Shown: positions 16,807-36,064 of the stretch, one piece after another
How positions within the stretch are numbered: the stretch's first letter is position 1
Layout: each line of letters begins with the position of its first letter
Source: Candidatus Alistipes faecavium
Lineage (GTDB): Bacteria > Bacteroidota > Bacteroidia > Bacteroidales > Rikenellaceae
Assembly: GCA_019118605.1 (NCBI GenBank)
Contig: DWYP01000018.1
Location: forward strand, 1,102 to 65,101
DNA length: 64,000 nt
Reading direction: 5' to 3'
The notes under the pieces: generated by a model
Databases searched by the model: none
What the model saw: the letters and a program-made list of their open reading frames with translations, nothing else
Told to the model about the DNA's origin: nothing
Translations under genes and position numbers: made by a program

Positions 16807-16851
16807 AAACAGTAACCCCGGGAAACGCGACGTTTCCCGGGGTTACTGTTT
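16807..16851. terminator. strong bidirectional terminator hairpin
   Basis: AAACAGTAACCCCGGGAAACG pairs with CGTTTCCCGGGGTTACTGTTT, a perfect 21-bp stem with a 3-nt loop. It overlaps the GntP stop codon and sits between convergent genes. Confidence 0.8.
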
Positions 16852-18091
16852 ATGCCATGAGCAGGTAGCAGGCCACGCTCGAGAGGGTGAGGGTCAGTCC
16901 CACGGCCGTCTCGTAGGGGATCATCCTGAGGCGTTCGTTCATTTTCATCTCGACAGATCCTCCCGTGGCGTGGAAGAACGACCCGTGGGGGAGGTGATCC
17001 AGCACGGTGGCTCCGGCGTTGACCATCGCGGCTCCCCACACGGCCGAGACGCCCGCCGCGAGGATGATGTCGGCGAACGATGCCGAGGCGATCGTCGCCC
17101 CGGCGGTCGTCGAAGCCGTGGCCGCCGACATCAGGGCCCCGGAGAGCGGCGCGACGGCTGTTTCGCCGATGTTCCAATGCGCGAGCACCGCATCCTTGAT
17201 CGACGAGGCCTTGATGATTCCAGCGATCGTGCCCGTGCCGATGAGCAGTACGGCGACGGGAGCCATCTTCTCGAGCCCGAAGTTGAGGCTCGGCAGCAGC
17301 TCCTGCCAGCGGCGCGTGGCGACGATCCCCACGAGACCTCCCGCGGGCAGAGCGATGAACGGGTCGACGGTCACCCCGGCCAGGGGCCGGAGCACGAGCA
17401 GCAGGATGGCCGTCAGCGGCCCTGCCATGCTGGCCCAAAACGACGGGAGGTCGGCTTGCGGCCCCTCTTCGGGTGTCGCCTCGGGAAGCTCTCCGCGTGC
17501 GGGCGCCAGAGGCAGCAGGACGTAGACCGTGAGCAGCAGCCCGACGATCGCCGGGATGAGGTTCACGAGCATGACCGACGAGAGCGGGGCGTCGAAATTC
17601 TCCGCCGCGATGATCGTGTTGGGATTGGGCGAGACGATGTTTCCGCACTTGCCTCCGGCGACCATCGTGAGCAGCAGGCGGAATTTCGAGATGCCGAGCT
17701 GTCGTCCGAGCATGATGGCCACGGGGGCCACGGTGATGACCGCCACGTCGATGAAGACGCCGGTTCCTGTGAGGAACATCGTCGCCAGGGCCAGGGCCAG
17801 GTAGACATGGCGGTTCCCGAGGCGGCGGACGATGGTGCGCGAGATGGAGGCCGCGCCGCCGGTGCGGATCAGCACGCCCGAGAGCACACCGGCCGAGAGG
17901 ATACGGATGACCGCGGGGATGATCTCCTCGATTCCCGAGATCATGAGGTCGACGGTCTTCAGGAGCGGATACCCGGCGGCGATTCCGCCGATGAGCGCTC
18001 CGAGCATGAGCCCGTAGACGGGCGAGACCTTGCGGATGATCAGGACGATGGCTACCGCCAGTCCCAGAAGTGCTGCCAGGGCGCTGTTCAT
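16850..18091 (-). CDS. GntP family permease (gluconate/glycerate-type anion:H+ symporter)
   Basis: 413 aa polytopic protein starting MNSALAALLGLAVAIVLIIRKVSPVYG. ATG confirmed at 18091. The track ORF to 19132 is a spurious extension through the glycerate kinase gene. Confidence 0.9.
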   Translation of the reverse strand: MNSALAALLGLAVAIVLIIRKVSPVYGLMLGALIGGIAAGYPLLKTVDLMISGIEEIIPAVIRILSAGVLSGVLIRTGGAASISRTIVRRLGNRHVYLALALATMFLTGTGVFIDVAVITVAPVAIMLGRQLGISKFRLLLTMVAGGKCGNIVSPNPNTIIAAENFDAPLSSVMLVNLIPAIVGLLLTVYVLLPLAPARGELPEATPEEGPQADLPSFWASMAGPLTAILLLVLRPLAGVTVDPFIALPAGGLVGIVATRRWQELLPSLNFGLEKMAPVAVLLIGTGTIAGIIKASSIKDAVLAHWNIGETAVAPLSGALMSAATASTTAGATIASASFADIILAAGVSAVWGAAMVNAGATVLDHLPHGSFFHATGGSVEMKMNERLRMIPYETAVGLTLTLSSVACYLLMA

Positions 18092-19239
18092 GGTTTTACG
18101 AGGTATTTCAGGGTTCGCATGATCTGTTCGACGGTGTTTTCGAGGTTTGCCCCGGCGCGCTCCGGACGCATGGCCTCGGCGAGCGTCACCGGGCCCGGGA
18201 CGATCGGGAAGACGGCCGTGAACCCGTTGTCGGTAAGGGGCCCGGGCTCCTCCACGGAGCCTCCGAGGGCGATGACGGGGATCTGCTGCCGGCGCGCTGC
18301 CGCGAGGATGCCGCAGGGCACCTTGCCGTGCAGGGTCTGGGCGTCGAGCCGCCCCTCGCCCGTGAGGACGAGATCCGCGCCGCGGAGCATGTCTTCGAAA
18401 CCTATCGCGTCGAGCAGCATCTCGATGCCCGGGACGAGCCGCGCGTGCAGCAGGCTCTTCATCCCGGCGCCGAGGCCTCCGGCGGCTCCCGCTCCGGGAA
18501 CCGTGGCGATCGGTGTGCCGGTGTGCCGCTCCACGACGCGGGCAAAGTTGCGCAGCCCCTCGTCGAGGCGCTCGATCATCTGTCGGTCGGCGCCCTTCTG
18601 CCGCGCGAAGACGTGCGCGGCGCCCTGGGGCCCGAAGAGCGGGTTGTCGACGTCGCACGCCACGGTGAACTCCGCCCCGTGCAGCTCCTCCATGGCCCCG
18701 CGGTCGTCGATCGTGCGCAGCTCCGCGAGCGAGCCTCCCGTTCCGTCGAGCTCCCGGCCCCGGTCGTCGAGCAGCCGGAACCCGAGGGCGCGGAGCATGC
18801 CGCAGCCTCCGTCGTTGGTCGCGCTGCCGCCGATTCCGATCAGGAACTTCCGGCAGCCCGCACGCAGGGCGTCGGCGATCATCTCGCCGAGCCCGAAGGT
18901 GGAGGTCTGCCACGGGTTCCGCTCGCTGTCGGCGAGCAGGGTCAGGCCGCTTGCGGCGGCCATCTCCATCACGGCGGTGCATCCGCCGTCGATCCATCCG
19001 TATTGCGCCTCGATCGGGCGCATCAGCGGGTCGTGGACCCGGACTGTGCGCCGCGATCCCCCGAGTGCCCGGACAATGGCCTCGGTGGTGCCCTCGCCGC
19101 CGTCGGCGACAAGGGCCGTCACGGTCTCGCACCCGGGAAAGAGGTGCCCGATGGCGGTCTGCGCCCGGGCCGCCGCCTCCTCCGAGGAGAGCGACCCCTT
19201 GAACGAGTCGAAGGCCAGTACGACTTTTTTCAGTTCCAT
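18088..19239 (-). CDS. glycerate kinase
   Basis: 383 aa starting MELKKVVLAFDSFKGSLSSEEAA...ALVADGGEGTTEAI, with GGSATNDGGCGML further on. There is an ATGA 4-nt overlap with the GntP start. ATG confirmed at 19239. Confidence 0.92.
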   Translation of the reverse strand: MELKKVVLAFDSFKGSLSSEEAAARAQTAIGHLFPGCETVTALVADGGEGTTEAIVRALGGSRRTVRVHDPLMRPIEAQYGWIDGGCTAVMEMAAASGLTLLADSERNPWQTSTFGLGEMIADALRAGCRKFLIGIGGSATNDGGCGMLRALGFRLLDDRGRELDGTGGSLAELRTIDDRGAMEELHGAEFTVACDVDNPLFGPQGAAHVFARQKGADRQMIERLDEGLRNFARVVERHTGTPIATVPGAGAAGGLGAGMKSLLHARLVPGIEMLLDAIGFEDMLRGADLVLTGEGRLDAQTLHGKVPCGILAAARRQQIPVIALGGSVEEPGPLTDNGFTAVFPIVPGPVTLAEAMRPERAGANLENTVEQIMRTLKYLVKP

Positions 19240-19264
19240 AAGCAGTAGCAGGTTTTCATGCCGT

Positions 19265-20839
19265 TCATCTCCAGGCGGTCGCTTCCCGGCGCCACTCCCG
19301 GAGCTTTTGCTGCTCGCGGGGCGTTGCCGGGGCGGTCGACCCCGGATAGTTGGGCGAATATATGATTTTTTCGGTAATGATCTGCAGCTCTCCGTTGCGG
19401 ACATAGCGCGCGTCGCGCTCCGCGAGGTGCGCGGTCAGCCGCGTGCGCCATGTGCGCAGCTCCGCGGCGTATTGCTCCTCTCCGGCCAGGTCGCGGCACT
19501 CCCCGGGGTCGTTCTCCAGGTCGAAGAGCTGCTCCTCGCCCGTGCGGGCGTTGCGGATGTATTTCCGGCGCCCGTCGGTCAGGGCCATCCAGCAGTTCTC
19601 CGGTTCGTAGATCTGGGCATGCTCCAGGTCGATGTATTCGCGCCACGGCGCCCCGGGGTCGGCGATCAGTCCGAGCACCGAGCGTCCGTCCATGTCGTCG
19701 GGAACCCCGCAGCCTGCGGCTTCGAGCATCGTCGGAAGGACGTCGCGCAGTTCGACAACCTGGCTGCGGCGTTCGTTCACCCCTCCGCAGCGGTCCCGCA
19801 TGTCGGCCGGGAGCCGTACGATGAAGGGTATCCTTGCCGAACCTTCGTAGGGGTATGTCTTGCGCCAGTGGTTGTGGTCGCCCAGCATGTCGCCGTGATC
19901 CGAGAGGAAGATAATCAGACAGTCGTCGTAGATGCCCTTCTCCTTGAGGGCCTCGACGATCCGTCCGATCTCGTAGTCGATGAACGAGATGCTCGCATAG
20001 TAGTATTTCCTTGCCCGGAGGGCCACCGAATCGCCGAAATCGCCGTAGCAGGCGTCGGAGGTCTCGGGAGTGTCCGGACGTGCGAAGCGCTCGCTCCATG
20101 CGCTGCGGAACGGGAGGGGGATCTGCTCCCCGTCGTAAAGCGCGACGAACCGTTCGGGCGGGTCGTAGGGGCTGTGGGGCCGTGCGAACGACACCTTCAG
20201 GAACAACGGATCCCCGAGGGCGTAGGCGTCGATCATCTCGATGGCTGTCTGGGCCGTCCAGGCTGTCGGGTGCAGGCGTTCGTCGAGCGGGTAGGGGGCG
20301 GCATAGTGGGAATTCCAGCTGATATGCAGCGTGTCGGGATTGATCCCCGGGGCATGGAGCTTGAACCAGTCGCGGTAGTCGCTCACGAATCCGTCCTGCT
20401 CGATGCGGCCGCTTTCGTCGACCAGCGTGCCGTTGAATCCGTGAAGCGTCTTCTGCGGGAACCAGTGCATCTTCCCGATTCCGAAGGTGTAGTACCCGGC
20501 CTCGCCCAGCATGCGCGGCATCTCGTAGCGGTAGTGTTCGGCGACGCGTCCGTATCCGAGCATGCCGTGGTGCCAGGGCGCGAGTCCCGTGAGTAGCCCC
20601 GCACGTGCGGGCGTGCTGCTCGGCACCGAGGAGTAGGCGTGGGTGAAGAGCGTTCCCTCGGCGGCCAGGCGGTCGAGGTTGGGTGTGTGGATGTGGGGAT
20701 TCACCGCCCCCAGGCAGTCGCCGCGGAACTGGTCGGCAACGATCAGAATGATGTGCGGCTGCCCGACGGTGCGGGCGGCGGCCGGGACTCCTGCCGCGGC
20801 CGCCGCTCCGATCATCAGGATTTTGTCGGCGCGGTACAT
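19265..20839 (-). CDS. S1 family sulfatase, Ser-type active site
   Basis: HIILIVADQFRGD...TPNLDRLAAEGTLFTHAYSSVPSSTPARAGLLTGLAPWHHGM. The formylglycine motif reads S-T-P-A-R, so Ser replaces Cys. Confidence 0.9.
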   Translation of the reverse strand: MYRADKILMIGAAAAAGVPAAARTVGQPHIILIVADQFRGDCLGAVNPHIHTPNLDRLAAEGTLFTHAYSSVPSSTPARAGLLTGLAPWHHGMLGYGRVAEHYRYEMPRMLGEAGYYTFGIGKMHWFPQKTLHGFNGTLVDESGRIEQDGFVSDYRDWFKLHAPGINPDTLHISWNSHYAAPYPLDERLHPTAWTAQTAIEMIDAYALGDPLFLKVSFARPHSPYDPPERFVALYDGEQIPLPFRSAWSERFARPDTPETSDACYGDFGDSVALRARKYYYASISFIDYEIGRIVEALKEKGIYDDCLIIFLSDHGDMLGDHNHWRKTYPYEGSARIPFIVRLPADMRDRCGGVNERRSQVVELRDVLPTMLEAAGCGVPDDMDGRSVLGLIADPGAPWREYIDLEHAQIYEPENCWMALTDGRRKYIRNARTGEEQLFDLENDPGECRDLAGEEQYAAELRTWRTRLTAHLAERDARYVRNGELQIITEKIIYSPNYPGSTAPATPREQQKLREWRREATAWR

Positions 20840-20849
20840 GACACAACGA

Positions 20850-23123
20850 TTAAATCAGCTCCTTGCCGGCCGTCGGCGTGAAATCCCGGTTGTCGAGGAA
20901 CTCCTCGCACTGCATCTCCGCGCGGTAGCGTGCATGCACGGCCTTGCAGGCCTCGATCTCGTCGCCCGACGGCTCGGTGGGGTAGCTCTCGTGTCCCAGA
21001 GTCCACTGCCATTCCCACTCCCTGCTCGACGCCGCGAATGCCTTGTAGGCGGCTTCGTCCATCGTGTAGCCCGCCGCGCGGATCGCCTCGAAGAAGCGTT
21101 CCCACCGCGGGGCGTAGTAGCCCGACATCATGCCCGACCACTGCCGGCAGGCGTAGTCGGCGATGCGGCACTCCTTGTTGCCCCACGTCGTGATCAGGTT
21201 GCGGGCATTCTGTTCGTAGAGGTCGCTCTCCGCGGGTGTCGTGCCCATTGCCCGGGCGTCGCGGAGCCAGCGGCCCAGCAGGAACTCCCCGCGTGTGGCG
21301 AGCACCGTGTCCAGATCGCCGATCAGGGCGAGGAACCGCTCCGCGGCCTGCTCGAAACCTTCGCGGTCGTGCCGCCCGAGCGCCTCGACGAAACGCTGCT
21401 GCAGCACCGAGGCGTAGTTGGCCAGCACCTGCCGCGTGATGTCGGTCAGGTCGTAGCGGAATCCGTCGCTCGCGGCCAGCGTGTCGGCGCAGGCGATCAT
21501 TCCGTCCCAGGCCTCCACCAGCGTGCGGTTCTTGTAGTGCAGGCGGATGTTGGTCGTCCCCTCGGGATTGCGCTTCAGCGTCGGACGCCCGGTGATGATC
21601 GACTCGTTGCCGCCGTTTGTCAGCTCGTTCTCATAGAGCGTCGGGAGCATTTTGTTCCAGGCCGCAATGGCCGTGGGGGAGGTTTTGCCGTAACGCCGGG
21701 TCGTGTACTCCGTGACGAACGTTCCGAGGTCGACGGGCGTGTCGCGCCAGACGTTCTCGAGAAAGAGCGCATAGATGAACGGATTCTGCTCGATGCCCTC
21801 CATCGTCAGGCCGATGCCGCGCATGTTGCCGGCCGCGGGGTCGTGCAGCGCCGCGGCGGGGTCGTTGGCCACGCTGCGGGCATTCCCCGAGAAGGTGATG
21901 TTCTGCCCGAAGTTGTGGAGCATGCACCAGATCCACTGCTTTCCGTCGTAGGCGTTCGTCTGTTTCCAGATCGGATAGCGCTCGCTCCAGAGGTCGAGGA
22001 CGATCATGTGCTCGTCGGGAACGGCCGAGAGCAGCGCCTCGATCTCCTTCTCGCCCCAGAACTCCCGGTCGTGGTAGAAGAGCCACCCCTGCATGACCCA
22101 CGTCGCTTCGGGGTCGCTCGCACGCATCGAGTCGAAGACCTTGCGGCTGATCTGGCTCAGGTAGAGCGAATCGTTCGTCGGGGGCAGGTTCTCGTTGAAC
22201 GTGTCGGCCGAATAGAGGTGGTTGGTGCCGTAGAGTCGCGTCTGCTCCTCGATGAACATCGAGCCGATGCGCGTGAAGAGCTCCTCGTCGGGGTCGAGGA
22301 TGCACACCTCGGGGAATTCGACCCACGAGGTCTTGCGCACCGCCGCGTCGGGGAACTTCTTCACGAAGGCGGGCGGCACGTGCCCGGTGAATGCCGGCAG
22401 CACGGGGGTCATGCCCAGCGCCCGCTCGCCGTGCAGGATGAAGCGCTGCAGCTCCTCGTGGCGGTCGATGAACGACTGGGGCAGGGGGCCTCCCCACCCG
22501 TCGAGGTTGCCCATCCAGAACCAGTTGAAATAGGCCGGGCCGCTGAAGAAGTCCTTCAGGTCGTCGTCCGAGAATCCCAGCTTGCGGTAGACCCGCTGCC
22601 ACACGGAGTTCTGCCCCGTGACGGCCAGCGGCATGTTGATGCCGTTCAGGGCCATGAAGTCGATCTCGCGCTGCCACCGGGCCTCGTCCCACCAGCTCAT
22701 CGTATAGTTGAACGTGCAGTAGTTCAGGTAGTAGCGGTACTTGTAGGGCGACGTGCGCTCCGTGCGGTCGGCAGGAACCGGCAGCTCCTCGGGCAGGTCG
22801 AGATTCGTGCCGCACCAGGTGATCTGGCAGTTGCAGTACCTCTCCAGGTAGTACTTCAGGGCGCTGGCCGCCGAAACGCCGTCGTTGCCTTCGAGCACGA
22901 TGCGCCCGTCGTGTCCGTAGAGGGCGAAGTAGTCCTTGCCGTCCTTCTGCACGCCCGTGACGTTGACCTCGAAGGCCCCGGCGTGCTCCGGGCCCACGAC
23001 GCGCCCGATCAGGGCGATGACCGCCCCGGCCTGCCTGTCGGGCGTGCAGACGCTCTTGGGCGCCCGGTTGCACGCGAGCATCAGCAGGCTGACGAGGGTC
23101 AGGAGTATGGTTTTGTATTTCAT
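20850..23123 (-). CDS. GH89 alpha-N-acetylglucosaminidase (NAGLU family), copy B
   Basis: 757 aa with an N-terminal lipoprotein signal. Carries GRIVLEGNDGVSAASALKYYLERYCNCQITWCG and YYLNYCTFNYTMSWWDEARWQREIDFMALNGINMPLA. Confidence 0.92.
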   Translation of the reverse strand: MKYKTILLTLVSLLMLACNRAPKSVCTPDRQAGAVIALIGRVVGPEHAGAFEVNVTGVQKDGKDYFALYGHDGRIVLEGNDGVSAASALKYYLERYCNCQITWCGTNLDLPEELPVPADRTERTSPYKYRYYLNYCTFNYTMSWWDEARWQREIDFMALNGINMPLAVTGQNSVWQRVYRKLGFSDDDLKDFFSGPAYFNWFWMGNLDGWGGPLPQSFIDRHEELQRFILHGERALGMTPVLPAFTGHVPPAFVKKFPDAAVRKTSWVEFPEVCILDPDEELFTRIGSMFIEEQTRLYGTNHLYSADTFNENLPPTNDSLYLSQISRKVFDSMRASDPEATWVMQGWLFYHDREFWGEKEIEALLSAVPDEHMIVLDLWSERYPIWKQTNAYDGKQWIWCMLHNFGQNITFSGNARSVANDPAAALHDPAAGNMRGIGLTMEGIEQNPFIYALFLENVWRDTPVDLGTFVTEYTTRRYGKTSPTAIAAWNKMLPTLYENELTNGGNESIITGRPTLKRNPEGTTNIRLHYKNRTLVEAWDGMIACADTLAASDGFRYDLTDITRQVLANYASVLQQRFVEALGRHDREGFEQAAERFLALIGDLDTVLATRGEFLLGRWLRDARAMGTTPAESDLYEQNARNLITTWGNKECRIADYACRQWSGMMSGYYAPRWERFFEAIRAAGYTMDEAAYKAFAASSREWEWQWTLGHESYPTEPSGDEIEACKAVHARYRAEMQCEEFLDNRDFTPTAGKELI

Positions 23124-23139
23124 GTCGCAGAGACGTTTT

Positions 23140-25299: not shown

Positions 25300-25341
25300 G
25301 GGCAAAGGTTTGGGTGTGGTTGGCATGTGCGGTCGGGATTG

Positions 25342-25425
25342 TCCCTGCGCGGCGCAGGGAGACCCGTAAGGAGAAATTGCCGACTCTCGGGGCCGGCAAT
25401 TTCTCTTTTTTCGGATCGTGATCCG
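25342..25425. terminator. cluster of three hairpins in the 128-nt spacer upstream of GH89 copy A
   Basis: TCCCTGCGC-g-GCGCAGGGA at 25342-25360. GAGAAATTGCCG (25371-25382) pairs with CGGCAATTTCTC (25394-25405), followed by T6 on the + strand. CGGATC-gt-GATCCG at 25412-25425. Confidence 0.45.
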
Positions 25426-25427
25426 CA

Positions 25428-27516: not shown

Positions 27517-27523
27517 GTCGGAA

Positions 27524-28345: not shown

Positions 28346-28348
28346 GGG

Positions 28349-29137: not shown

Positions 29138-29144
29138 GTGTCGT

Positions 29145-30836
29145 TTAGTCCCATCCGGGGTTGTTGGGCAGCAGGTTGGGGTTGAGCTGCGACTGCTTGA
29201 ACGGTACGGAGAGCAGGTAGTGCTTCGGGTCGACGAACGTGCGGCCGGTCTCGATCACCAGGTACTCTTCGCCGTTGACGCTCTTCCATGTCAGGTCGTC
29301 GAGGTCGATCGACAGACGCGAGGGATCGAGCCAGCTGCGCTTCACGCCCAGCAGGTCTTCGCCCAGCAGCGGCCCCTGCTTCCAGCGGATGATGTCGAAA
29401 TAGCGGTGTCCCTCGAAGAAGAGCTCCACGCGGCGCTCGCGGCGGATCTCGGTGCGCAGGTCCGAACCCTGCGGGAGCTTGCTCAGCTCGAGGTGCACCA
29501 TGCCGACGCGGTCGCGCAGCTTGTTGATGGTCTTGTCGATGTCGTCCTGCGTCACGTTCCCGAGCTGCTCCTTGGCCTCGATGTAGTTGAGCAGCACCTC
29601 GGCATAGCGCAGGATGATGATGTCGTTGTCGTCGTGTCCGACCGACCCCACGGTGCTCGGCTCCACGTACTTGCGCAGGTAGTATCCCGAATAGGTCATG
29701 CAGCCCGAGCGCATGTTGACAAGCAGCGGGTAGGTGAACAGCTGCGGGTCGGTGTTGTTCACATCGCCTCCGATGCCGCCCTCCCAGGGGGTGTTGGGCT
29801 GGAGGATCGACTGCGTCATGCGGGGGTCGCGGTGCTCGAAGACCTCCTCGTAGGTCGATACCGACGCGGGATCCCAGATCTCGCCCTCGTCGGTCAGATA
29901 CGACTCGATGGTCGACTTCGTGGGCACGAAACGCGAATAGTCGTTCGGCACCCAGATCTCGCGCGAGAGGTTGTGCGACGTGCGGGCGTCCTCGCCGAGC
30001 TCGTAGTTGTAGACGAAGGCCAGCAGGGTCTCGTGGTTCGCGGCGTTGCGCGAGGCGCGTCCGGTGTAGTTGAACAGGTTCGTATAGTCCGCGTCGGGAT
30101 TGCCCGTGGAGTAGAGACCGTAGTATGTGGAGGCCATGGCCCGCTCGGCGGCGTTCACGGCGTCGGCATACCGCTCGTTGTAGAGGTAGATGCGCGAGAG
30201 CAGCGCCAGGGCCGCGGTCTGCGACACGCGCCCGAACTCGTCGCTCCCGGCCTCGATGTACTCCGGAAGTGCGAGGTAGTGCTCCTCGAGGTCCTTCGTG
30301 ATGGCGTCGATGACATCCGCCCGCTTGTCGCGCCCGCGGTACACGTCCGGGGAGTCGACGTTCAGCTCGTCGGTGATGTAGGGCACGTCGCCGAAGTAGG
30401 AGGTGAGCATCCAGTAGTTGTAGGCGCGGTAGAAGTAGGCCTCGGCGGCGAAGCGCTCCTTGACCTCGTCGCTGACGTTCACGGCGCGCTTGTAGTTGTT
30501 CAGATAGTAGTTCGTGCGTCCGATGTAGGTGTAGGACTCCGTCCAGATGGTGTTGATCTGGCTGATGTCGGTGGCGTAGTTGCCGCCTCCGATGGTGCGG
30601 AATGCCGTGGTCACGGCCCACGGGGCGCTCTCGGCCATGGCTTCGGTCATGTTGAGCCAGTATTTTCCGCGCAGCGACCCGGTAAAGGTGTTTGCGACGC
30701 TTTTGACGTGCTCCTCGGTCTGCCAGAAGTTTTCGTCCGTGATCTGGTCGAGCGGGTAGCGGTCCAGGAAGGCATCGTTGCAGGAGCCTGCGAGCAGGCC
30801 CGTCAGGCAGAGGCTGTATAATAATAATCTTTTCAT
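29145..30836 (-). CDS. susD: SusD/RagB family outer-membrane lipoprotein
   Basis: MKRLLLYSLCLTGLLAGSCNDAFLDRYPLDQITDENFW is a typical SusD N-terminus, with TPR-like helices and C-terminal RWKQG...NPGW. ATG confirmed at 30836. Confidence 0.92.
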   Translation of the reverse strand: MKRLLLYSLCLTGLLAGSCNDAFLDRYPLDQITDENFWQTEEHVKSVANTFTGSLRGKYWLNMTEAMAESAPWAVTTAFRTIGGGNYATDISQINTIWTESYTYIGRTNYYLNNYKRAVNVSDEVKERFAAEAYFYRAYNYWMLTSYFGDVPYITDELNVDSPDVYRGRDKRADVIDAITKDLEEHYLALPEYIEAGSDEFGRVSQTAALALLSRIYLYNERYADAVNAAERAMASTYYGLYSTGNPDADYTNLFNYTGRASRNAANHETLLAFVYNYELGEDARTSHNLSREIWVPNDYSRFVPTKSTIESYLTDEGEIWDPASVSTYEEVFEHRDPRMTQSILQPNTPWEGGIGGDVNNTDPQLFTYPLLVNMRSGCMTYSGYYLRKYVEPSTVGSVGHDDNDIIILRYAEVLLNYIEAKEQLGNVTQDDIDKTINKLRDRVGMVHLELSKLPQGSDLRTEIRRERRVELFFEGHRYFDIIRWKQGPLLGEDLLGVKRSWLDPSRLSIDLDDLTWKSVNGEEYLVIETGRTFVDPKHYLLSVPFKQSQLNPNLLPNNPGWD

Positions 30837-30873
30837 GTTTCGAACGATGTGTGTGTTTGGTTGATTCATGCTG

Positions 30874-33800
30874 CTACTTGAAGGAGATGTTCAGTCCGAA
30901 GACGAACGTCTTGACCTGCGGATAGTATCCGCCGCTCGAGACCGGGGTCTCGGGGTCGTAGGCGTAGAAGAAGTCGCTCTTCGTGAAGAGGTTGTCGATG
31001 GAGACGTAGAAGCGGCAGTTGTTGATGTGCGCCTTCGATACCCACTTCTTCGGCAGCGTATATCCGATCTGGATGTTCTTCAGACGCAGGTACGAGGCAT
31101 CCTCGAGCCAGAAGGTCGAGAAGGTGCTCTGGTTGAAGCTCGTGTTGTAGGTCAGACGCGGGTAGGAGGCGTTCGGATCGGGGTTGTTGACCACGTGATA
31201 GCGCTCCAGGTGCACCTTCTGGGGGTACCCGGCCTGATCCTGGAAGGCGTGGCGGGCGCTTCCCGTGAGGTATCCGTCGCACTTGCCCACACCCTGCAGC
31301 ATGAAGCTGAAGTCCAGGTTCCGCCAGGCGAGGTTGCCGCGCAGGCTGTAGGTGTAGCGGGGGATGTTGCTCCCGATGACCACGCGGTCGTACTCGGGCG
31401 AGATGCGTCCGTCGGGCACTCCGTCGGGGCCGCTGATGTCCATGTACTTGATGTCGCCGGGCTCATAGTCGTAACCCGTTACCACGGGGATGTTGGGAAG
31501 CTCGTACTTCTGCGTCGCCTCGTCGTAGAGGTCGAAATCCTCGGGCATCATGAGCCCCGTTGCGATGTATCCGTAGAATGCATCGATCGGGTCGCCCACG
31601 CGGCGGATCTGGTAGCCGCTCAGGTCGGCGGTCGTGTCGCCCAGGGAGGTGATCTTGTTCTTCACGTCCGAGAGGTTGAAGCCGATGCCGTAGGAGATCT
31701 CCCCGATGCGGTCCTGCCAGTTGATGTCGATCTCCCAGCCGCGGTTGTTCACCGATCCGAGGTTCTCCTCGGGCCAGTCGGAGCCGATCTGTGCGGGGTA
31801 GGTGCGTTTGAGCAGCGTGCGGTCGGTGTTCTTGTCATACCAGTCGAAGGTCAGCGACAGGCGGTTGTTGAAGAACGACGCGTCGATACCGATGTCGAGC
31901 ATCTTGATCTGCTCCCACGTCAGGTTGGGGTTCGCGAGGATGCTCTGGATGTATCCCGTCGTGGCGTTGCCGCCGATGAGCGAGATGCCCGAGGAGTAGG
32001 TCTCCAGCACGCCCAGATAGGGGTAGTTCGACGATCCGACATACTGGTTTCCGAGCATTCCGTACGAAGCGCGGAGCTTGAGGTTGTCCACCACGCGGCG
32101 CGTTGCGGCCATGAACGACTCCTCCGAGAGGCGCCATCCTGCGGAGAACGACGGGAACCATCCTCCGCGGTTGTCCTTGTGGAAGCGCGACGAGAGGTCG
32201 TAGCGGAGATTCATCTCGAGCAGGTAGCGCTCGTCGAAATTGTAGCTCAGGCGTCCGAATCCCGAACGCAGGGCCCATTGCGTGGCGTCGGAGTCGTTGC
32301 TCATCGTCGAGGCGTCGCCGAGGTTGAGCGTCGGATCCTTTTCGGTGGAGAGGTTGTTGCGCGAGGCCTCGAAGTTCCGCTCCACGTAGACCTCCTGCTC
32401 CATGCCGACGACGCCGCTGATGCGGTGCCGGTTGATCGTGTAGTCGAAGTCGGTCTGCAGGATGAGGGTCTGCTGCGTATGGCGGTAGTCGCGGTTCGAG
32501 AGCGAGTTGGGCGAGTTGTAGAGCACCGAGGCTCCGGTATCGGGGTTTACGAAATTGATGGTCTTCTTGAGCGTCTGCCGCAGGGCGTTGTAGGAGGAGT
32601 AGTTGTAGGTGGCCGTGGCGCTCCATCCCTTGAGGATGTTCACCTTCAGGCTCTCGAGCAGCGAAACCTCCTCGACGTCGGTCGAGGTTCTTCCGCCGTC
32701 GGTCAGCACGGCGACCGGGTTGGTGTTGCCGCCTCCGTAAGCCCAGCTTCCGTCGGTGTAGCGCACCGGGACGTTGGGCGCGATGCGCATGGCGTTGTAA
32801 ATCGCGCCGCCGCCGCTCGAGAGCGACGTCAGCGGGGAGGTGATGTTGCGGATGGTGTATCCGATGTTGGAGGAGAGGGTGATGATCTTGGCGATCTTCG
32901 TGTCCATCTTGTAGCGGATGTTGTGGCGCTGCTCGCCCGTGGAGTTCCCGACGGTCAGACCGTCCTGGTCGAAGTAGCGGTAGCTGAGGCGGTATCCCGT
33001 CTCACCGAACGATCCGACGACCGAGGCTCCGTAGCTCTGCTGCAGGGCGTGGTCCTTGATTACCTCGTCGACCCAGTTCGTATTGGCGTAGAGATTGGGC
33101 ATCGTGCCGTTCGTCACGGCGTCGAACTGCTCCTGGTTCCAGGCCGTGGAGACTCCGATGTTCGTGCGGGCCTCGTTGTCGAGGGTCATGTACTCGATGG
33201 CGTCGCACATCTCCGGAAGGCGCGTGGGGGTCTGGATGCCCATGTAGGCGTCGAAGGTGATCTGCGGCTCGGTGTTTCCCGCGAGTTTGCGCGTGGTGAC
33301 CAGCAGGACGCCGTTGGCGCCGCGGGCTCCGTAGATCGAGGCCGAGGCGGCATCCTTGAGCACCGAGACGCTCTCGATGTCGTCGGGGTTGATCGACGTG
33401 ATGTCGCCCTCGACGCCGTCGACCAGGATCAGCGGGTTGGAGTTGCCGATCGTACCGATACCGCGGATGCGGATGGTCGTATTCGCGTTGCCGGGCTGTG
33501 CCGTGGAGTTGATGACCGTCACGCCGGGGAGCAGGCCCTGGAGTCCGCTCGAAAAGGTCGCCATGGGGCGCGAGGCGATGTCCTCGCTCGAGATGGCCGA
33601 GACCGAACCCGTGAGGTTGACCTTCTTCTGCACGCCGTATCCTACGACCACGACGTCCTCGAGCACCTGCGTGTCGTTTTCGAGTACGATGTTGAGTTCG
33701 GTCTGCGCGCCGATCTGCACCTCCTGACGGTCATATCCCAGGAAGGAGAACTGCAGGGTCTGACCCGGGGCCGCTTCGATGGAGAAGGCCCCGTTGACGT

Positions 33801-34287
33801 CGGTGACCACGCCGCGGCTGGTGCCCTTGACGATGACGCTCGCGCCGATGATCGGCTCTCCGGTGGAGGATTTCACCACTCCGGTGATATGCCCCGGGGC
33901 AGCCTGTGCCGCCGCTGCGGCCTTCCCTTCCGGGAGGGGTTTCACGACGATGCGCTTTCCCTCGATGGCGGCCGTGAGCCGCTGTGCGGCCAGCACACGG
34001 TTGACGACGTCGATGACCTTCTCGTTCGAGGCCCGGACGTTCACCGGGAGGGTCAGGTCTATTTCGTTGTTGTTGTACGCGAAGGTGTAGCCGCTCAGCT
34101 GCTCGACCTGTTCGATGAAGTCCTTGACGGAACTCTTCTCCCCGGCCATGTTCAGGGAGATCGTCTTGTCCTGAGCTTCGGCCGGGAGCAGCGCGAAGAG
34201 AGCCAACACGAGTGCAATGATCGACTTCCGCACGGACAAGGCCGTGCCGGAGGCTTTCCAGCGTTGGGATTGTTTCATGTCTGTCAT
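30874..34287 (-). CDS. susC: SusC/RagA TonB-linked transporter with an N-terminal STN signalling domain
   Basis: 1137 aa. An STN-like segment (VKDFIEQVEQLSGYTFAYNN...) precedes the carboxypeptidase-regulatory-like domain. TonB box is EDVVVVGYG. Plug and barrel follow, and the protein ends FGLNISFK. Confidence 0.93.
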   Translation of the reverse strand: MTDMKQSQRWKASGTALSVRKSIIALVLALFALLPAEAQDKTISLNMAGEKSSVKDFIEQVEQLSGYTFAYNNNEIDLTLPVNVRASNEKVIDVVNRVLAAQRLTAAIEGKRIVVKPLPEGKAAAAAQAAPGHITGVVKSSTGEPIIGASVIVKGTSRGVVTDVNGAFSIEAAPGQTLQFSFLGYDRQEVQIGAQTELNIVLENDTQVLEDVVVVGYGVQKKVNLTGSVSAISSEDIASRPMATFSSGLQGLLPGVTVINSTAQPGNANTTIRIRGIGTIGNSNPLILVDGVEGDITSINPDDIESVSVLKDAASASIYGARGANGVLLVTTRKLAGNTEPQITFDAYMGIQTPTRLPEMCDAIEYMTLDNEARTNIGVSTAWNQEQFDAVTNGTMPNLYANTNWVDEVIKDHALQQSYGASVVGSFGETGYRLSYRYFDQDGLTVGNSTGEQRHNIRYKMDTKIAKIITLSSNIGYTIRNITSPLTSLSSGGGAIYNAMRIAPNVPVRYTDGSWAYGGGNTNPVAVLTDGGRTSTDVEEVSLLESLKVNILKGWSATATYNYSSYNALRQTLKKTINFVNPDTGASVLYNSPNSLSNRDYRHTQQTLILQTDFDYTINRHRISGVVGMEQEVYVERNFEASRNNLSTEKDPTLNLGDASTMSNDSDATQWALRSGFGRLSYNFDERYLLEMNLRYDLSSRFHKDNRGGWFPSFSAGWRLSEESFMAATRRVVDNLKLRASYGMLGNQYVGSSNYPYLGVLETYSSGISLIGGNATTGYIQSILANPNLTWEQIKMLDIGIDASFFNNRLSLTFDWYDKNTDRTLLKRTYPAQIGSDWPEENLGSVNNRGWEIDINWQDRIGEISYGIGFNLSDVKNKITSLGDTTADLSGYQIRRVGDPIDAFYGYIATGLMMPEDFDLYDEATQKYELPNIPVVTGYDYEPGDIKYMDISGPDGVPDGRISPEYDRVVIGSNIPRYTYSLRGNLAWRNLDFSFMLQGVGKCDGYLTGSARHAFQDQAGYPQKVHLERYHVVNNPDPNASYPRLTYNTSFNQSTFSTFWLEDASYLRLKNIQIGYTLPKKWVSKAHINNCRFYVSIDNLFTKSDFFYAYDPETPVSSGGYYPQVKTFVFGLNISFK

Positions 34288-34354
34288 TTTAAGTTTGTAA
34301 ATTGTAGTCAGGTGGATTGGCGGATTGTCGGGCCTTTCGGGGCCGTGTTGCCGG

Positions 34355-35347
34355 TCAGTGGTAGATACGGATATAGCGGTCGTTGATCCGGCGGTATCGC
34401 AGGTTGGCGAGTGTCGTCGTAAGGTCGAGCGTCGTTTCGAGCTTGTCGGCCTCGAGCGTGAAGGAGAGTCCGATCGAGGTGTCGACGTCGGGGTCGACCT
34501 GGAAGCGGATGTTGTAGCGGTGTTCCAGGTCGGTCAGGATGTCCTTCAGCGGGGTGTTTTCGAAGACGATGGAGTCGTTGAGCCAGTTGCAGTAGTTGCT
34601 TGCCGCGACATGTTTGATCGTGAACTGCTGCGAGCGGGTGTCGTAGACGCAGCTCTCGTCGGGGCTGAGCTGCAGGGGGGCGCGCAGCCGGTCGCTGAGG
34701 ATCTCGACGCGGCCGCTGAGCAGCGTGACCTCGTTCGTGCCGAAGGCCTCGACGTTGCAGGCGTTGAAACTTGTCCCGAGGACCTTCACCTGCATTTGCC
34801 CGAGCTCTACGATGAACGGACGCAGCGAATCCTTCCGGACGTTGAAAAAGGCCTCTCCGTCGAGCCGTACGTGGCGCTGTCCCTTTCTGGAAAACTCCTT
34901 GGAGTAGGTCAGCCGGGACTCCGAATTGAGCCATACGACCGTATTGTCGGGCAGCGTGATGCGGCCCTTGCAGTTCTCGGCCGTGACGAAGGTCGTCGTG
35001 GTGCGGGAGGCGGCGAGGTGCCTGACGACGTACAGGTCGGCGATCACGATCCCCGCAACGAGAATGGCCGCAGCCGCGGGCCACATCCGCAGCAGGCGCG
35101 CGCGGAATGTCCTGCGTGCGGGGGCGAGACCCATTTCGGCATGGAGCCTGCGGAGTTTCTGGCCGTAGTTCTGTTTTTCGATGTCGAGCACCTCTGCGGG
35201 GTCGAGGCGGTTCCACTCCTCGTGCAGGAGGGCCTCCTTCTGTTCCGCATCCTTCTCCTCCAGGCACCAGCGCCGGAACATCTCCCGGGCTTTCGGGGGC
35301 ATGGGGTGGTGCAGGAACAACCGGATTATCTTTCTCGAGAGATCCAT
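34355..35347 (-). CDS. FecR-family anti-sigma factor
   Basis: 330 aa with one transmembrane segment (AAAILVAGIVIADLYVV). The periplasmic FecR/DUF4974-like region carries LPDNTVVWLNSESRLTY...LDGEAFFNV. Confidence 0.9.
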   Translation of the reverse strand: MDLSRKIIRLFLHHPMPPKAREMFRRWCLEEKDAEQKEALLHEEWNRLDPAEVLDIEKQNYGQKLRRLHAEMGLAPARRTFRARLLRMWPAAAAILVAGIVIADLYVVRHLAASRTTTTFVTAENCKGRITLPDNTVVWLNSESRLTYSKEFSRKGQRHVRLDGEAFFNVRKDSLRPFIVELGQMQVKVLGTSFNACNVEAFGTNEVTLLSGRVEILSDRLRAPLQLSPDESCVYDTRSQQFTIKHVAASNYCNWLNDSIVFENTPLKDILTDLEHRYNIRFQVDPDVDTSIGLSFTLEADKLETTLDLTTTLANLRYRRINDRYIRIYH

Positions 35348-35417
35348 CTTTGCATGTTTTACAATATAAAGACGGACAACGGCGGCTTATCCCTAAACCG
35401 ATCGGGATTTTTTTTCG

Positions 35418-35447
35418 AAAAAAAGAAAAAATCCGCCTCCGGGGCGG
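35418..35447 (-). terminator. intrinsic-terminator-like element between the sigma and anti-sigma genes
   Basis: The minus strand reads CCGCC-ccgga-GGCGG followed by ATTTTTTCTTTTTTT. The stem is short (5 bp), so this may be only an attenuator. Confidence 0.4.
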
Positions 35448-35503
35448 TCAGAAACCTCCAGCCTTGCGGATTTCCGCTGCGGCCTGCGGCTCCGAATGGG
35501 GCG

Positions 35504-36064
35504 TCAGATGAAGAAGAGAAGCAGGATCTGGATAACCTTTTTCAGCTCGTTGACGGCCATGCGGATGTGGTACTCCACGCTCTTCTGCGAGATGCCCAGC
35601 TTGCGGGCGATCTCCTGCTGGGGGATTCCGTCGTAACGGTTCATGCGGAAGATCTTCCGGCGCTGTGCGGGCATCTTCTCGACGGCCAGGTCGATGATCA
35701 GCAGCAGGTCGCGTCGGTCGACCTTTTCGGCAAGGTCTTCCGAGAGGAACTCTCCGACGTCCATCTGCCGGGAGCTCTCCCGGTAGCGGGAGCGCACGGC
35801 CTTGCGCTCGAAAAGGTCGAAGAGCGCATTCTTTGTCATGCGGAAGAGGTAGCTCTTGAACGAGCGCACACCGTCGAGCGAATCCCTGCTTTCCCAGAGT
35901 TTCAGAAACAGGTCATGGGCGAGGTCTTCGGCTTCGCTCCGGTCCTTGAGCATACAGTACGCAAAGGCCTCCACATGCGCTGCGTAGCGCATGTAGATCG
36001 CATCGAAAGCGTTGCTGTCGCCTTGTTTCAGCTGTTGAAGTAACTCTTCGTCTGTAGGACGCAT
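35504..36064 (-). CDS. ECF-type RNA polymerase sigma-70 factor
   Basis: 186 aa starting MRPTDEELLQQLKQGDSNAFDAIYMRY...DLAHDLFLKLW (region 2), with IPQQEIARKLGISQKSVEYH (region 4 HTH). ATG confirmed at 36064. The track ORF is extended to 36169. Confidence 0.9.
   Translation of the reverse strand: MRPTDEELLQQLKQGDSNAFDAIYMRYAAHVEAFAYCMLKDRSEAEDLAHDLFLKLWESRDSLDGVRSFKSYLFRMTKNALFDLFERKAVRSRYRESSRQMDVGEFLSEDLAEKVDRRDLLLIIDLAVEKMPAQRRKIFRMNRYDGIPQQEIARKLGISQKSVEYHIRMAVNELKKVIQILLLFFI

Follow-up and report, generated by a model that had tools for sequence, protein, structure and literature searches.

A Sus-like locus of EEP-fold enzymes, GH89 lipoproteins and a glycerate module, possibly directed at a teichoic-acid-like polymer

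The window, a stretch of 64,000 nucleotides from Candidatus Alistipes faecavium, contains a Sus-like polysaccharide utilization locus (PUL) that is under ECF-sigma/anti-sigma control. Its proposed substrate is a teichoic acid of the type of the C. difficile lipoteichoic acid PS-III, which bears glycerate and has its alpha-GlcNAc/GlcN units linked by phosphodiesters; to this assignment we give about an even chance. The locus enzymes match this polymer bond for bond, so that the locus may, if the proposal is true, be the first known system feeding on a Gram-positive teichoic acid.

Gene order, control elements and binding proteins

Thirteen minus-strand genes occupy positions 16850-36064 (Table 1). 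Recomputation reproduced their order and coordinates, and from SusD onward the gaps are 7, 3, 7, 52, 128, 16, 10 and 25 nt, followed by a 4-nt overlap. The gene order, gaps, divergent intergenic region and terminator with a 21-bp stem described in the first-pass annotation were thus all borne out, and a Pfam search upheld each of its family assignments, with a weak match for STN and a partial one for GntP_permease. The 21-bp-stem hairpin sits between the permease gene and the convergent gene of an acyl-ACP thioesterase. Long plus-strand ORFs across the locus gave zero Pfam matches; in this genome, with its 62% GC, they are shadow ORFs. Spacing and synteny suggest that the locus genes are co-transcribed. 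Possible breaks lie at the T-run hairpin between the sigma and fecR genes and at the strong hairpins between lipoprotein 2 and GH89a.

Table 1. Features of the locus and its borders (window coordinates)
Feature	Position	Strand	Remarks
Hairpin, perfect 21-bp stem + 3-nt loop	16807..16851	.	sequence read; bidirectional terminator candidate
GntP/CitMHS-superfamily permease, 413 aa	16850..18091	-	PF02447, 79 bits, partial; 4-nt overlap with kinase
Class I glycerate kinase, 383 aa	18088..19239	-	PF02595, 479 bits; TIGR00045; without signal peptide
Ser-type S1 sulfatase, BT1918 (S1_46) kind, 524 aa	19265..20839	-	PF00884; formylglycine motif S75-T-P-A-R
GH89b, alpha-N-acetylglucosaminidase-family lipoprotein, 757 aa	20850..23123	-	NAGLU_N, NAGLU, NAGLU_C
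GH89a, alpha-N-acetylglucosaminidase-family lipoprotein, 719 aa	23140..25299	-	NAGLU_N, NAGLU, NAGLU_C
Two stable hairpins, 14-bp + 8-bp stems	25342..25405	-	128-nt gap lipoprotein 2/GH89a
Lipoprotein 2, 422 aa	25428..26696	-	N-terminal Ig-like domain + conserved C-terminal domain
EEP2, secreted EEP-fold enzyme, 255 aa	26749..27516	-	PF03372, 89 bits
Lipoprotein 1, 273 aa	27524..28345	-	candidate surface glycan-binding protein
EEP1, secreted EEP-fold enzyme, 262 aa	28349..29137	-	PF03372, 85 bits; SPI-type signal peptide
SusD-like lipoprotein, 574 aa from first ATG	29145..30869	-	SusD_RagB, SusD-like_3
SusC-like TonB-dependent transporter, N-terminal signalling extension, 1137 aa	30874..34287	-	Plug, CarboxypepD_reg/CarbopepD_reg_2, weak STN
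FecR-type anti-sigma factor, 330 aa	34355..35347	-	Pfam FecR + FecR_C
Motif CCGTCTTTATATTGTAAA, 10 nt 5' of fecR	35358..35375	-	candidate (ECF-type?) promoter element
All-GC 5-bp hairpin, then ATTTTTTCTT	35433..35447	-	directly 3' of sigma gene; candidate terminator/attenuator
ECF-type sigma-70 factor, 186 aa	35504..36064	-	Pfam Sigma70_r2, Sigma70_r4_2, Sigma70_ECF
Divergent intergenic region, 215 bp	36065..36279	.	between ECF sigma gene and GT4 gene
GT4 glycosyltransferase gene	36280-37419	+	divergent neighbour of ECF sigma gene

Sigma factor, FecR, extended SusC and SusD follow each other in the same order as in the ECF-sigma/anti-sigma host-glycan PULs of Bacteroides, which signal across the envelope via the N-terminal extension of SusC; in B. 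thetaiotaomicron this type of control is typical for host-glycan PULs. For the STN domain noted earlier in SusC there is a weak N-terminal Pfam match at residues 67-117, which with 23.7 bits falls under the cut-off of 28.4. In the window's other SusC, nothing corresponds to the first 133 residues. SusD is called with 563 aa in the related locus L001. Upstream of fecR, the candidate promoter motif occurs once in the window (expected 0.01), and CCGTCTTTA-N-TGTAAA is kept at this place in L005, L006 and L007. A T/A-run palindrome 3' of the sigma gene is also present in L005 and L006; hairpin plus T-run sites like that at 35433-35447 are no more frequent in the region than expected by chance. The gap between lipoprotein 2 and GH89a is predicted to fold as RNA with -51.3 kcal/mol (z = -5.15 versus shuffles).

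The two lipoproteins show no homology to each other, and Pfam and NCBIfam searches assigned them to zero families; for the conserved C-terminal domain of lipoprotein 2 a PDB match was absent as well. Both carry a lipobox cysteine with acidic residues after it (in lipoprotein 1 Cys20, then GESSSSEE). The putative binding proteins are acidic (pI 4.2-4.8), which runs counter to a simple charge complementarity with a polyanion.

A conserved core followed by a glycerate module

Comparing the neighbourhoods of orthologous loci, as suggested in the first-pass annotation, revealed that 47 related loci share a colinear susC-susD-EEP1-lipo1-EEP2-lipo2, among them 43 GTDB species representatives from several Bacteroidales families, and the lipoprotein 1 gene invariably lies between both EEP genes. 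The locus is thus widespread in gut Bacteroidales; one of its carriers is the isolate Porphyromonadaceae sp. NP-X (L033). Two GH89 genes, an anciently diverged pair, come next in most loci, and the series EEP-lipoprotein-EEP-lipoprotein-GH89-GH89 is colinear in Rikenellaceae, Cryptobacteroides, Tidjanibacter, Paludibacteraceae and others. EEP1 and EEP2 share 29% identity and GH89a and GH89b 34%, and each of the four is conserved separately at 41-79% identity; these old paralog pairs imply four distinct specificities. In some loci a GFO/IDH/MocA enzyme takes the place of GH89. Moreover, versions of the locus were found in MAGs that, by their record names, seem to stem from digesters, bioreactors and biofilms, where host glycans are unexpected.

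The strict conservation of gene order across families argues against a mosaic of unrelated units, a reading that takes the EEP enzymes for nucleases acting on extracellular DNA and treats GH89s, sulfatase and kinase as independent genes. DNases do belong to the EEP fold, and the hairpins in the sigma/fecR and lipoprotein 2/GH89a gaps would suit such a mosaic; however, a typical nuclease locus exists separately elsewhere in the window, and the nearest structural relative of the EEP2 model is a sugar phosphatase. Hardly any weight is given to this explanation.

Judged from the comparative sequence data, glycerate kinase and permease are the most informative part of the locus. Among the 31 related loci with at least 7 kb of downstream sequence, a glycerate kinase stands right behind the core in 28, belonging to class I/GlxK (PF02595) in 20 and to the unrelated DUF4147/MOFRL class (NF041176, 4e-67) in 8; in the other 3 it was undetected. 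The window's kinase scores 462.6 bits against a TIGR00045 cut-off of 168. Every glycerate kinase has a permease partner: the class I kinase-permease pair stands behind the core in 20 loci, and the MOFRL loci use a different, canonical GntP. The window's permease is predicted to be a glycerate importer. This non-homologous replacement indicates glycerate as a product, and kinases from two unrelated families in 28 of 31 loci narrow the substrate to a glycerate-containing polymer, e.g., PS-III, and speak against the earlier view of kinase and permease as passengers.

A glycerate-free alpha-GlcNAc phospho-polymer, such as poly-GlcNAc-1-phosphate or a teichoic acid of ribitol- or glycerol-phosphate decorated with alpha-GlcNAc, would require that the kinase-permease pair is an unrelated metabolic unit that is merely adjacent. 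The combination of EEP and GH89 fits such polymers, and the 25-nt gap by itself is no proof of functional linkage. However, 28 of 31 loci retain the adjacency despite the kinase replacement, genes for ribitol or glycerol-phosphate handling are absent, and the NagX-like gene of sister loci (see below) implies GlcN residues, which fit PS-III better. GlcNAc-1-phosphate polymers, named as candidates before, leave the glycerate module unexplained, as do ribitol- and glycerol-phosphate teichoic acids, and this type of substrate is considered very unlikely.

Enzymes of the locus and their known relatives

An alignment of 17 orthologs shows no variation at the catalytic residues of EEP1 (N37, E68, H154, D187/N189, D225, D249/H250), and those of EEP2 are likewise invariant in its ortholog alignment. 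A relationship of the two enzymes to BT3783 is undetectable by sequence, but the AF2 model of EEP2 (pLDDT 86) has as top Foldseek match 3MPR/4C1R, i.e., the mannosyl-6-phosphatase BT3783, with a small lead over other EEP structures and a sequence identity of ~19%. BT3783 acts as PUL phosphatase on phosphorylated yeast mannan and is, next to BT2630, one of the EEP-fold phosphatases of the B. thetaiotaomicron yeast alpha-mannan PULs (Cuskin et al., 2015; PMC4978465). EEP1 is predicted to be a sugar phosphodiesterase or phosphatase and EEP2 a sugar-6-phosphate phosphatase or phosphodiesterase; their substrates cannot be read from sequence. Like the alpha-mannan PULs, this is proposed to be a SusC/SusD locus for a microbial cell-wall glycan with a phosphodiester-linked sugar and combines exo-glycosidases with a predicted EEP-fold sugar phosphatase. 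Unlike them, it encodes GH89 rather than GH38, GH76, GH92, GH99 and GH125, two EEP paralogs alternating with two novel lipoproteins, and the glycerate kinase and permease.

Both GH89s have their closest match in human NAGLU (4XWH), GH89a with 2e-117 and GH89b with 3e-172, and retain the Glu motifs (FNE with PEG in GH89a, FNE with MEG in GH89b). They have the three-domain catalytic module in common with C. perfringens CpGH89 (PDB 2VC9/2VCC), which acts on alpha-GlcNAc-capped mucin. In contrast to CpGH89 they are without CBM and other extensions, and they are two diverged paralogs with other predicted aglycones in a phosphoesterase-containing PUL. To our knowledge, GH89 activity is known on a1,4-GlcNAc linked to Gal or uronic acid, and we know of none on a1,3-GlcNAc or a glycerate aglycone. 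In at least nine sister loci, including those of one very prevalent gut species, a NagX-like transmembrane glucosamine N-acetyltransferase (NF046061, 3e-79) stands at the position of the sulfatase; the gene is absent from the window's locus. Pairing it with GH89s suggests a lysosome-like logic of acetylating terminal alpha-GlcN and then cleaving it, as in the heparan-sulfate exo-pathway (NAGLU, HGSNAT, glucosamine sulfatases), from which the locus differs by being without uronic-acid enzymes, by its phosphoesterases and glycerate catabolism, and by its bacterial periplasmic setting.

With BT1918, an S1_46 3S-GlcNAc sulfatase (PDB 7OZ8; bioRxiv 10.1101/2021.07.23.453482), the sulfatase shares 57% identity (5e-181), the Ser-type FGly motif and the sugar-binding residues (equivalents of Y94, R143, W173, N174, R327 and Y408). 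Unlike BT1918 it is embedded in a PUL, yet it is no conserved PUL member, and 3S-GlcNAc need not be what the subfamily naturally acts on. As it was found in 8 of 31 loci at variable positions, it does not belong to the core, and sulfation, considered possible earlier, is no defining property of the substrate. S1_46 homologs elsewhere lie in housekeeping neighbourhoods outside PULs. The enzyme is accessory to the locus, with no role assigned in the PS-III scheme.

These enzymes could also belong to a host-glycan PUL trimming alpha-GlcNAc caps from the ends of heparan sulfate or from gastric-type mucin O-glycans that are capped with a1,4-GlcNAc, with GH89 as NAGLU, the NagX-like protein as HGSNAT and a 3-O-sulfatase. 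The ECF-sigma/FecR/STN-SusC architecture, the closeness of both GH89s to human NAGLU, the BT1918-like sulfatase and the NagX-like genes favor this. However, galactosidase, glucuronidase, iduronidase, lyase and a second sulfatase are absent from the window's locus and the conserved core, and the locus is without the mucin or GAG enzymes usual in Bacteroides host-glycan PULs. Moreover, the two conserved EEP enzymes and the twice-recruited glycerate kinase are unaccounted for, the distribution of the sulfatase and the housekeeping neighbourhoods of its homologs fit poorly, and Paludibacteraceae that appear to be non-host also have the locus conserved. A host glycan is thus regarded as an unlikely substrate.

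PS-III as candidate substrate

The PS-III repeat, ->P-6)-a-GlcNAc(or GlcN)-(1-3)-a-GlcNAc-[1-2-glycerate]-(6->, has exactly two alpha-GlcNAc linkages, with GlcN in part of the residues, and one each of glycerate aglycone and 6,6'-phosphodiester, and occurs in chains of 1-10 repeats; the number of hydrolytic enzymes equals its number of bond types. In a literature search it was the sole documented polymer to combine a glycerate aglycone and a phosphodiester with two linkages of alpha-GlcNAc/GlcN, and a paper describing such a locus was not found. The earlier idea of a phosphodiester-bridged, alpha-GlcNAc-bearing, teichoic-acid-like polymer gains support from the colinear core, the EEP2 model being nearest to a PUL sugar-6-phosphatase, and the apparently non-host MAGs; its caveat that sequence alone does not decide the substrate is upheld.

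Against PS-III stands the S1_46 sulfatase in the window's locus, as the polymer has no known sulfation. The known GH89 specificities, the lack of the NagX-like gene in this locus, the acidic binding proteins, the host-glycan type of control and the three loci without a detected kinase count against it, too. Furthermore, in the sources checked PS-III-type polymers are documented for C. difficile only, and the locus by far exceeds this species in prevalence (3918 blocks list the EEP2 ortholog P0130), so that other producers must be assumed. The sulfatase, this prevalence and the hint at sugar variation given by GFO/IDH/MocA enzymes favor another glycerate-containing phosphoglycan, perhaps one so far undescribed, such as a capsule, glycosyl-glycerate conjugates or a different cell-wall polymer of bacteria or archaea, to which the colinear core and the glycerate module apply equally. 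However, the literature searches yielded no alternative polymer with all required features, and we see in this a possible but doubtful substrate class.

For PS-III, every step of the following pathway is what we infer. SusD and the two surface lipoproteins would capture the short chains and SusC would import them, and binding would signal via the SusC extension to FecR and the ECF sigma factor. In the periplasm, one EEP would cleave the 6,6'-phosphodiester and the other would strip the leftover 6-phosphate, analogous to BT3783 on mannose-6-phosphate. One GH89 might take off the terminal a1,3-GlcNAc and the other split GlcNAc-a1,2-glycerate. The permease would import glycerate, which the kinase would convert to phosphoglycerate for glycolysis, and the released GlcNAc would enter general catabolism. 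In many sister loci, the NagX-like membrane acetyltransferase might re-acetylate terminal GlcN residues, turning them into GH89 substrates.

Layout and regulation of the locus

Recomputing starts, stops and spacers reproduced exactly the thirteen minus-strand genes of the first-pass annotation, including the gaps of 7, 3, 7, 52, 128, 16, 10 and 25 nt from SusD onward and the 4-nt overlap of kinase and permease, and its gene assignments are all backed by Pfam. The sigma gene carries Sigma70_r2, Sigma70_r4_2 and Sigma70_ECF, i.e., it encodes an ECF factor with regions 2 and 4, and the adjoining anti-sigma gene matches FecR and FecR_C. Plug and CarboxypepD_reg/CarbopepD_reg_2 are found in SusC and SusD_RagB in SusD, the two genes being separated by 4 nt. 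The STN domain of SusC is a weak match, lying where expected (residues 67-117) but falling short, with 23.7 bits, of the Pfam cut-off of 28.4; the orthologs of SusC are likewise flagged as weak STN, and the window's other SusC is without the N-terminal extension. The glycan-degrading enzymes encoded on the same strand beside susC/susD, i.e., the products of two GH89 and two EEP genes, keep their order in 47 related loci. Judged by this domain content, the locus is a Sus-like PUL under ECF/anti-sigma control, which is an already known kind of system.

The thirteen genes may be co-transcribed. Recomputation also bore out the perfect 21-bp stem of the hairpin between the convergent genes at the distal end and the divergent region that parts the sigma gene from a GT4 glycosyltransferase gene. 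Long plus-strand ORFs over the locus were ruled out as real genes: they match no Pfam family and are shadows of the high GC content (about 62% in the window). The motif CCGTCTTTATATTGTAAA upstream of fecR is kept in the three closest Alistipes loci (L005, L006, L007) and is a candidate for a sigma-dependent promoter element. Together with the all-GC hairpin and T-run after the sigma gene, it suggests that sigma is transcribed apart from fecR and the downstream genes. Moreover, a gap of 77-130 nt before GH89a recurs among orthologous loci, and the two hairpins that it holds in the window may serve for attenuation or RNA stabilisation where the uptake module gives way to the enzyme module. A scan for terminator and promoter consensus sequences gave counts not above chance.

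Positions of features in the window and in loci from other genomes and metagenomes (L handles)
Feature	Sequence	Position	Strand	Remarks
Thirteen-gene locus	window	16850-36064	minus	
Hairpin between convergent genes	window	16807-16851		21-bp stem
Divergent region before sigma gene	window	36065-36279		
All-GC hairpin with T-run, after sigma gene	window	35433-35447	minus	
Motif CCGTCTTTATATTGTAAA	window	35358-35375	minus	10 nt upstream of fecR; single occurrence in window
Two very stable hairpins, 128-nt gap lipo2/GH89a	window	25342-25405	minus	-51.3 kcal/mol, z = -5.15
NagX-like gene	L003	15746-16858		also L012, L014, L015, L017, L030, L045
NagX-like gene	L048	16541-17653		
Canonical GntP with DUF4147/MOFRL set	L032	11295-18001		also L019, L020, L029, L031, L033, L035, L040
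Rearranged Cryptobacteroides locus	L014	11219-21206		
457-aa protein and 493-aa EEP	L003	19324-21269		also L045
S1_46 homolog	L051	9001-10548		
S1_46 homolog	L052	9001-10500		
S1_46 homolog	L053	9001-10566		
Nucleic-acid-type cluster	window	2922-11747	plus	
Second SusC/SusD locus	window	44167-58953	minus	
Flanking genes	window	11884-14718	minus	
Flanking genes	window	38910-40898	minus	

Predicted enzymes and lipoproteins

Both EEP proteins match PF03372 above threshold (85 and 89 bits), carry an SPI-type signal peptide each, and keep the metal-binding and catalytic residues (N, E, H, D-x-N, D and S-D-H) invariant across their ortholog alignments. EEP1 and EEP2 share 29% identity and align with an hhalign E-value of 3e-53, i.e., they are paralogs. 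Single-sequence searches of both against the PDB gave nothing useful, and profile searches resulted in weak, generic matches to TDP2, ExoIII, APE1, sphingomyelinase, nocturnin and uncharacterised structural-genomics proteins; these matches do not point to a substrate. For the AlphaFold model of EEP2 (pLDDT 86) the top Foldseek match is 3MPR (E 3e-16, TM 0.69; identity about 19%), a structure of BT3783, of which a further structure, 4C1R, is found at rank 9. BT3783 is a mannosyl-6-phosphatase of the yeast-mannan PUL of B. thetaiotaomicron (PMC4978465). It was not matched in the sequence-profile searches with EEP1 and EEP2, and its lead over neutral sphingomyelinase, nocturnin and TDP2 in the Foldseek search is small; because of this small margin, the kinship of EEP2 to BT3783-type sugar-6-phosphatases that the model suggests is treated as a lead and not as an assignment.

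Neither lipo1 nor lipo2 matches a Pfam or NCBIfam family. In both, the lipobox Cys is followed by acidic residues, a Bacteroidetes-type stretch suggesting that these lipoproteins are surface-exposed. The lipo2 model (pLDDT 82) comprises an N-terminal Ig-like domain and a conserved C-terminal domain; Foldseek matched only the former (TM below 0.2), the latter being without PDB counterpart, and the exact lipo2 sequence has no database record. As lipo1 and lipo2 have nothing in common beyond the signal peptide, a simple tandem duplication of a two-gene EEP-lipoprotein unit was rejected, the EEPs being paralogous and the lipoproteins unrelated. Likewise, electrostatic binding of a polyanion via charge complementarity found no support, mature lipo1, lipo2 and SusD all being acidic.

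GH89a and GH89b both contain the N-terminal, TIM-barrel and C-terminal NAGLU domains (Pfam E-values 1e-20 to 1e-143), and human NAGLU (4XWH) is closest to both of them (2e-117 for GH89a, 3e-172 for GH89b). The glutamate motifs aligned to 4XWH read FNEM and PEG in GH89a and FNEN and MEG in GH89b, and we take the FNE and PEG motifs to hold the two catalytic glutamates of NAGLU. The two proteins, sharing 34% identity, are predicted alpha-N-acetylglucosaminidases.

The sulfatase carries a Ser-type formylglycine motif (S75-T-P-A-R-AGLLTG) that fits C/S-x-P/A-x-R, and its closest characterised member is BT1918 (PDB 7OZ8; 5e-181, 57% identity over 472 aligned residues). BT1918 belongs to S1_46 and takes the 3-O-sulfate off 3S- and 3S,6S-GlcNAc, the N-acetyl group being required (bioRxiv 10.1101/2021.07.23.453482). 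Its sugar-binding residues Y94, R143, W173, N174, R327 and Y408 are all kept in the window's sulfatase and are identical in eight locus-linked orthologs, bar one Y-to-F exchange at the Y94 position. Furthermore, S1_46 homologs of 56-59% identity are present in Draconibacterium, Dysgonomonas and one further genome (L051-L053) in housekeeping neighbourhoods and not in PULs, with ribBA directly preceding the gene in L051 and L053; these contexts put in question what the subfamily acts on and offer no explanation for the sulfatase of the window.

The kinase scores 462.6 bits against TIGR00045 (cut-off 168.45) and 479 bits against PF02595 (positions 1-371 of 372), by which it is classed as a class I glycerate kinase (GlxK/GarK). 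The permease matches PF02447 partially (79 bits, positions 5-248 of 440), as well as CitMHS and Na_H_antiport_2, and lies far below the cut-offs of the NCBIfam GntP models; it is best called a putative permease of the ion-transporter superfamily.

Conservation and variation among related loci

In the protein collection 1386 homologs of lipo2 are present, none of them annotated. Scanning a single genome for each species resulted in 43 loci, and metagenome look-ups added L001-L004, giving a mapped set of 47, as well as L048-L050, which were read from gene tables only and stand outside this mapping. The 43 scan loci belong to uncultured Alistipes (84-85% identity), Rikenellaceae, Tidjanibacter, Cryptobacteroides, Muribaculaceae, Paludibacter/Paludibacteraceae and one isolate, Porphyromonadaceae sp. 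NP-X. The comparison of gene neighbourhoods, proposed at the first pass, showed that order and orientation of susC-susD-EEP1-lipo1-EEP2-lipo2 are constant in the 47 loci as far as the contigs reach. The paralogs are kept separately, with identities of 41-77% for EEP1, 44-76% for EEP2, 57-77% for GH89a and 55-79% for GH89b. So strict a synteny excludes a mosaic of unrelated genes.

Downstream genes were counted in those loci, 31 in number, whose sequence runs on for about 7 kb or more beyond lipo2. Both GH89 genes are present in 26 of these, a glycerate kinase directly downstream in 28 and a permease in 30; the S1_46 sulfatase is found in only 8 of the 31 and has no fixed place, following GH89b or the permease, separating the GH89 genes or lying on the opposite strand. 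The kinases belong to unrelated families, i.e., class I in 20 loci, as in the window, and DUF4147/MOFRL in eight Paludibacteraceae-type loci, where the protein is placed among glycerate 2-kinases by NCBIfam (NF041176, 4e-67) and has as its partner a canonical GntP permease (286 bits), other than the one of the class I loci. That two non-homologous glycerate kinases were independently recruited beside the same core is strong comparative evidence for glycerate as a predicted product of the pathway. A glycerate-free teichoic acid or a poly-GlcNAc-1-phosphate as the substrate would leave this kinase module unexplained and is regarded as very improbable.

Many loci encode at the sulfatase position a 370-aa membrane protein, which has no Pfam match and aligns end to end with NagX (NF046061, 3e-79, below the equivalog cut-off), a transmembrane glucosamine N-acetyltransferase (NCBIfam NF046061). 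Its bearers include one extremely prevalent gut species, the corresponding EEP2 ortholog (P0130) being listed in 3918 blocks; in the window no such gene was found. The NagX-like gene suggests a substrate in which part of the terminal residues is alpha-GlcN without an acetyl group. Five Paludibacter loci (L018, L019, L020, L029, L032) have a GFO/IDH/MocA oxidoreductase in place of the GH89 genes, and four of these five also contain a third EEP and a 491-aa protein. Both additions, the 491-aa protein having a choice-of-anchor Q domain, are part of the Paludibacteraceae-type versions with the DUF4147/MOFRL kinase. The Cryptobacteroides locus L014 contains three GH89 genes and a rearranged order of permease, NagX-like gene and kinase; in L003 and L045 a 457-aa protein (weak F5/8 type C/discoidin match) and a further EEP of 493 aa are encoded beyond the permease.

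The regulator type, the NAGLU-like GH89 enzymes, the analogy of the NagX-like protein to HGSNAT and the BT1918-like sulfatase would also suit a PUL for host glycans, i.e., alpha-GlcNAc-capped mucin or the ends of heparan sulfate. However, such a substrate leaves the EEPs and the doubly recruited glycerate kinase unexplained, every other enzyme for these glycans is missing, and some locus-bearing MAGs come, judged by their record names only, from bioreactors, digesters and biofilms. A host-glycan substrate is therefore considered unlikely.

Candidate substrates and neighbouring loci

The two old GH89 paralogs suggest a substrate with two different alpha-GlcNAc linkages, and the two different EEP enzymes suggest phosphoester bonds that need both of them. 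Taken together, the conserved functions appear to call for two alpha-GlcNAc linkages, some alpha-GlcN, phosphoester bonds and glycerate. The first-pass reading of the substrate as a phosphodiester-bridged alpha-GlcNAc polymer is supported and made more specific by the conserved EEPs, the GH89s and the glycerate module: the substrate is probably some glycerate-containing alpha-GlcNAc phosphoglycan of microbial origin.

PS-III-type lipoteichoic acid (LTA) is a vaccine antigen of C. difficile. The PS-III repeat is ->P-6)-a-D-GlcNAc-(1-3)-a-D-GlcNAc-[1-2-glyceric acid]-(6->, with GlcN replacing the first GlcNAc in about 30% of the repeats and a water-soluble variant containing mostly GlcN (PMC13558421). 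Its 1-10 repeats are anchored by triglucosyl-diacylglycerol, and the polymer shows broad conservation across clinical isolates (PMC13614052). A chain of this length is expected to be within the range that a SusC could handle. Each conserved enzyme of the locus seems to map to one feature of the repeat, and because every one of them finds such a match a PS-III pathway is proposed. One EEP would be a new sugar 6,6'-phosphodiesterase and one a GlcNAc-6-phosphatase, the GH89s would have new specificities for a1,3-GlcNAc and GlcNAc-a1,2-glycerate, two new surface-lipoprotein families would take part, and kinase and permease would form a dedicated glycerate salvage module. To our knowledge, no GH89 enzyme is known to act on PS-III aglycones.

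The chances of this PS-III-type teichoic-acid model are about evenly balanced. The sulfatase, for which an unsulfated polymer offers no role, the missing NagX-like gene in the window's own locus and the acidic putative binding proteins are misfits, and a glycerate-containing polymer other than PS-III is a serious alternative. In the sources checked no PS-III-type LTA is documented outside C. difficile; a possible similar LTA in Peptostreptococcus anaerobius is not relied on here. As the locus is far more prevalent than C. difficile, the PS-III model requires similar polymers in other anaerobic Firmicutes. It is directly testable because the repeat and fragments thereof have already been chemically synthesised (PMC13558421, PMC13614052).

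Closest in logic to the locus is the yeast-mannan PUL of B. thetaiotaomicron, which likewise combines exo-glycosidases with EEP-fold phosphatases, BT3783 and BT2630 dealing with phosphorylated cell-wall mannan (PMC4978465). In the literature no description was found of a locus that combines two EEPs alternating with two novel lipoproteins, two GH89s and a glycerate salvage pair, and searches combining GH89, PULs, SusC/SusD or Bacteroidota with teichoic acids gave nothing relevant and no teichoic-acid PUL. Tentatively, and with somewhat more doubt than confidence, the locus is put forward as the first PUL dedicated to a Gram-positive LTA of the PS-III type, with a complete bond-by-bond pathway and widespread in gut and digester Bacteroidales. 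If true, Bacteroidales PULs, known to act on dietary, host and fungal glycans, would also draw on the teichoic acids of Gram-positive neighbours, and a route by which bacterial necromass is recycled, in the gut as in anaerobic digesters, would come to light. Glycerate-bearing teichoic acids would be far more widespread than the one documented species, with PS-III-like forms common among anaerobic Firmicutes and a regular food source. Moreover, two unannotated lipoprotein families and two EEP clades would gain functions, and new GH89 specificities would be predicted. The enzymes would be candidates for dismantling a conserved C. difficile LTA antigen, useful as analytical tools and possibly in studies of colonisation resistance.

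Elsewhere in the window, a plus-strand cluster encodes two DUF5689 proteins (the first of 769 aa), a DNA/RNA non-specific endonuclease, an Exo_endo_phos_3 protein (372 bits) and a large CarboxypepD_reg outer-membrane protein of 944 aa; its content resembles that of a locus for using extracellular nucleic acids, separate from the EEPs described here. A second SusC/SusD locus, on the minus strand and without glycoside hydrolase, contains DUF4984/DUF4843, BACON, leucine-rich-repeat, DUF4458/LRR, S8 subtilase and DUF1573 proteins and may target proteins or glycoproteins. The genes flanking the locus bear no relation to it; their products include an M16 peptidase pair-domain protein, a DUF2975 protein, an acyl-ACP thioesterase, an MFS transporter and a TPR protein of 662 aa.
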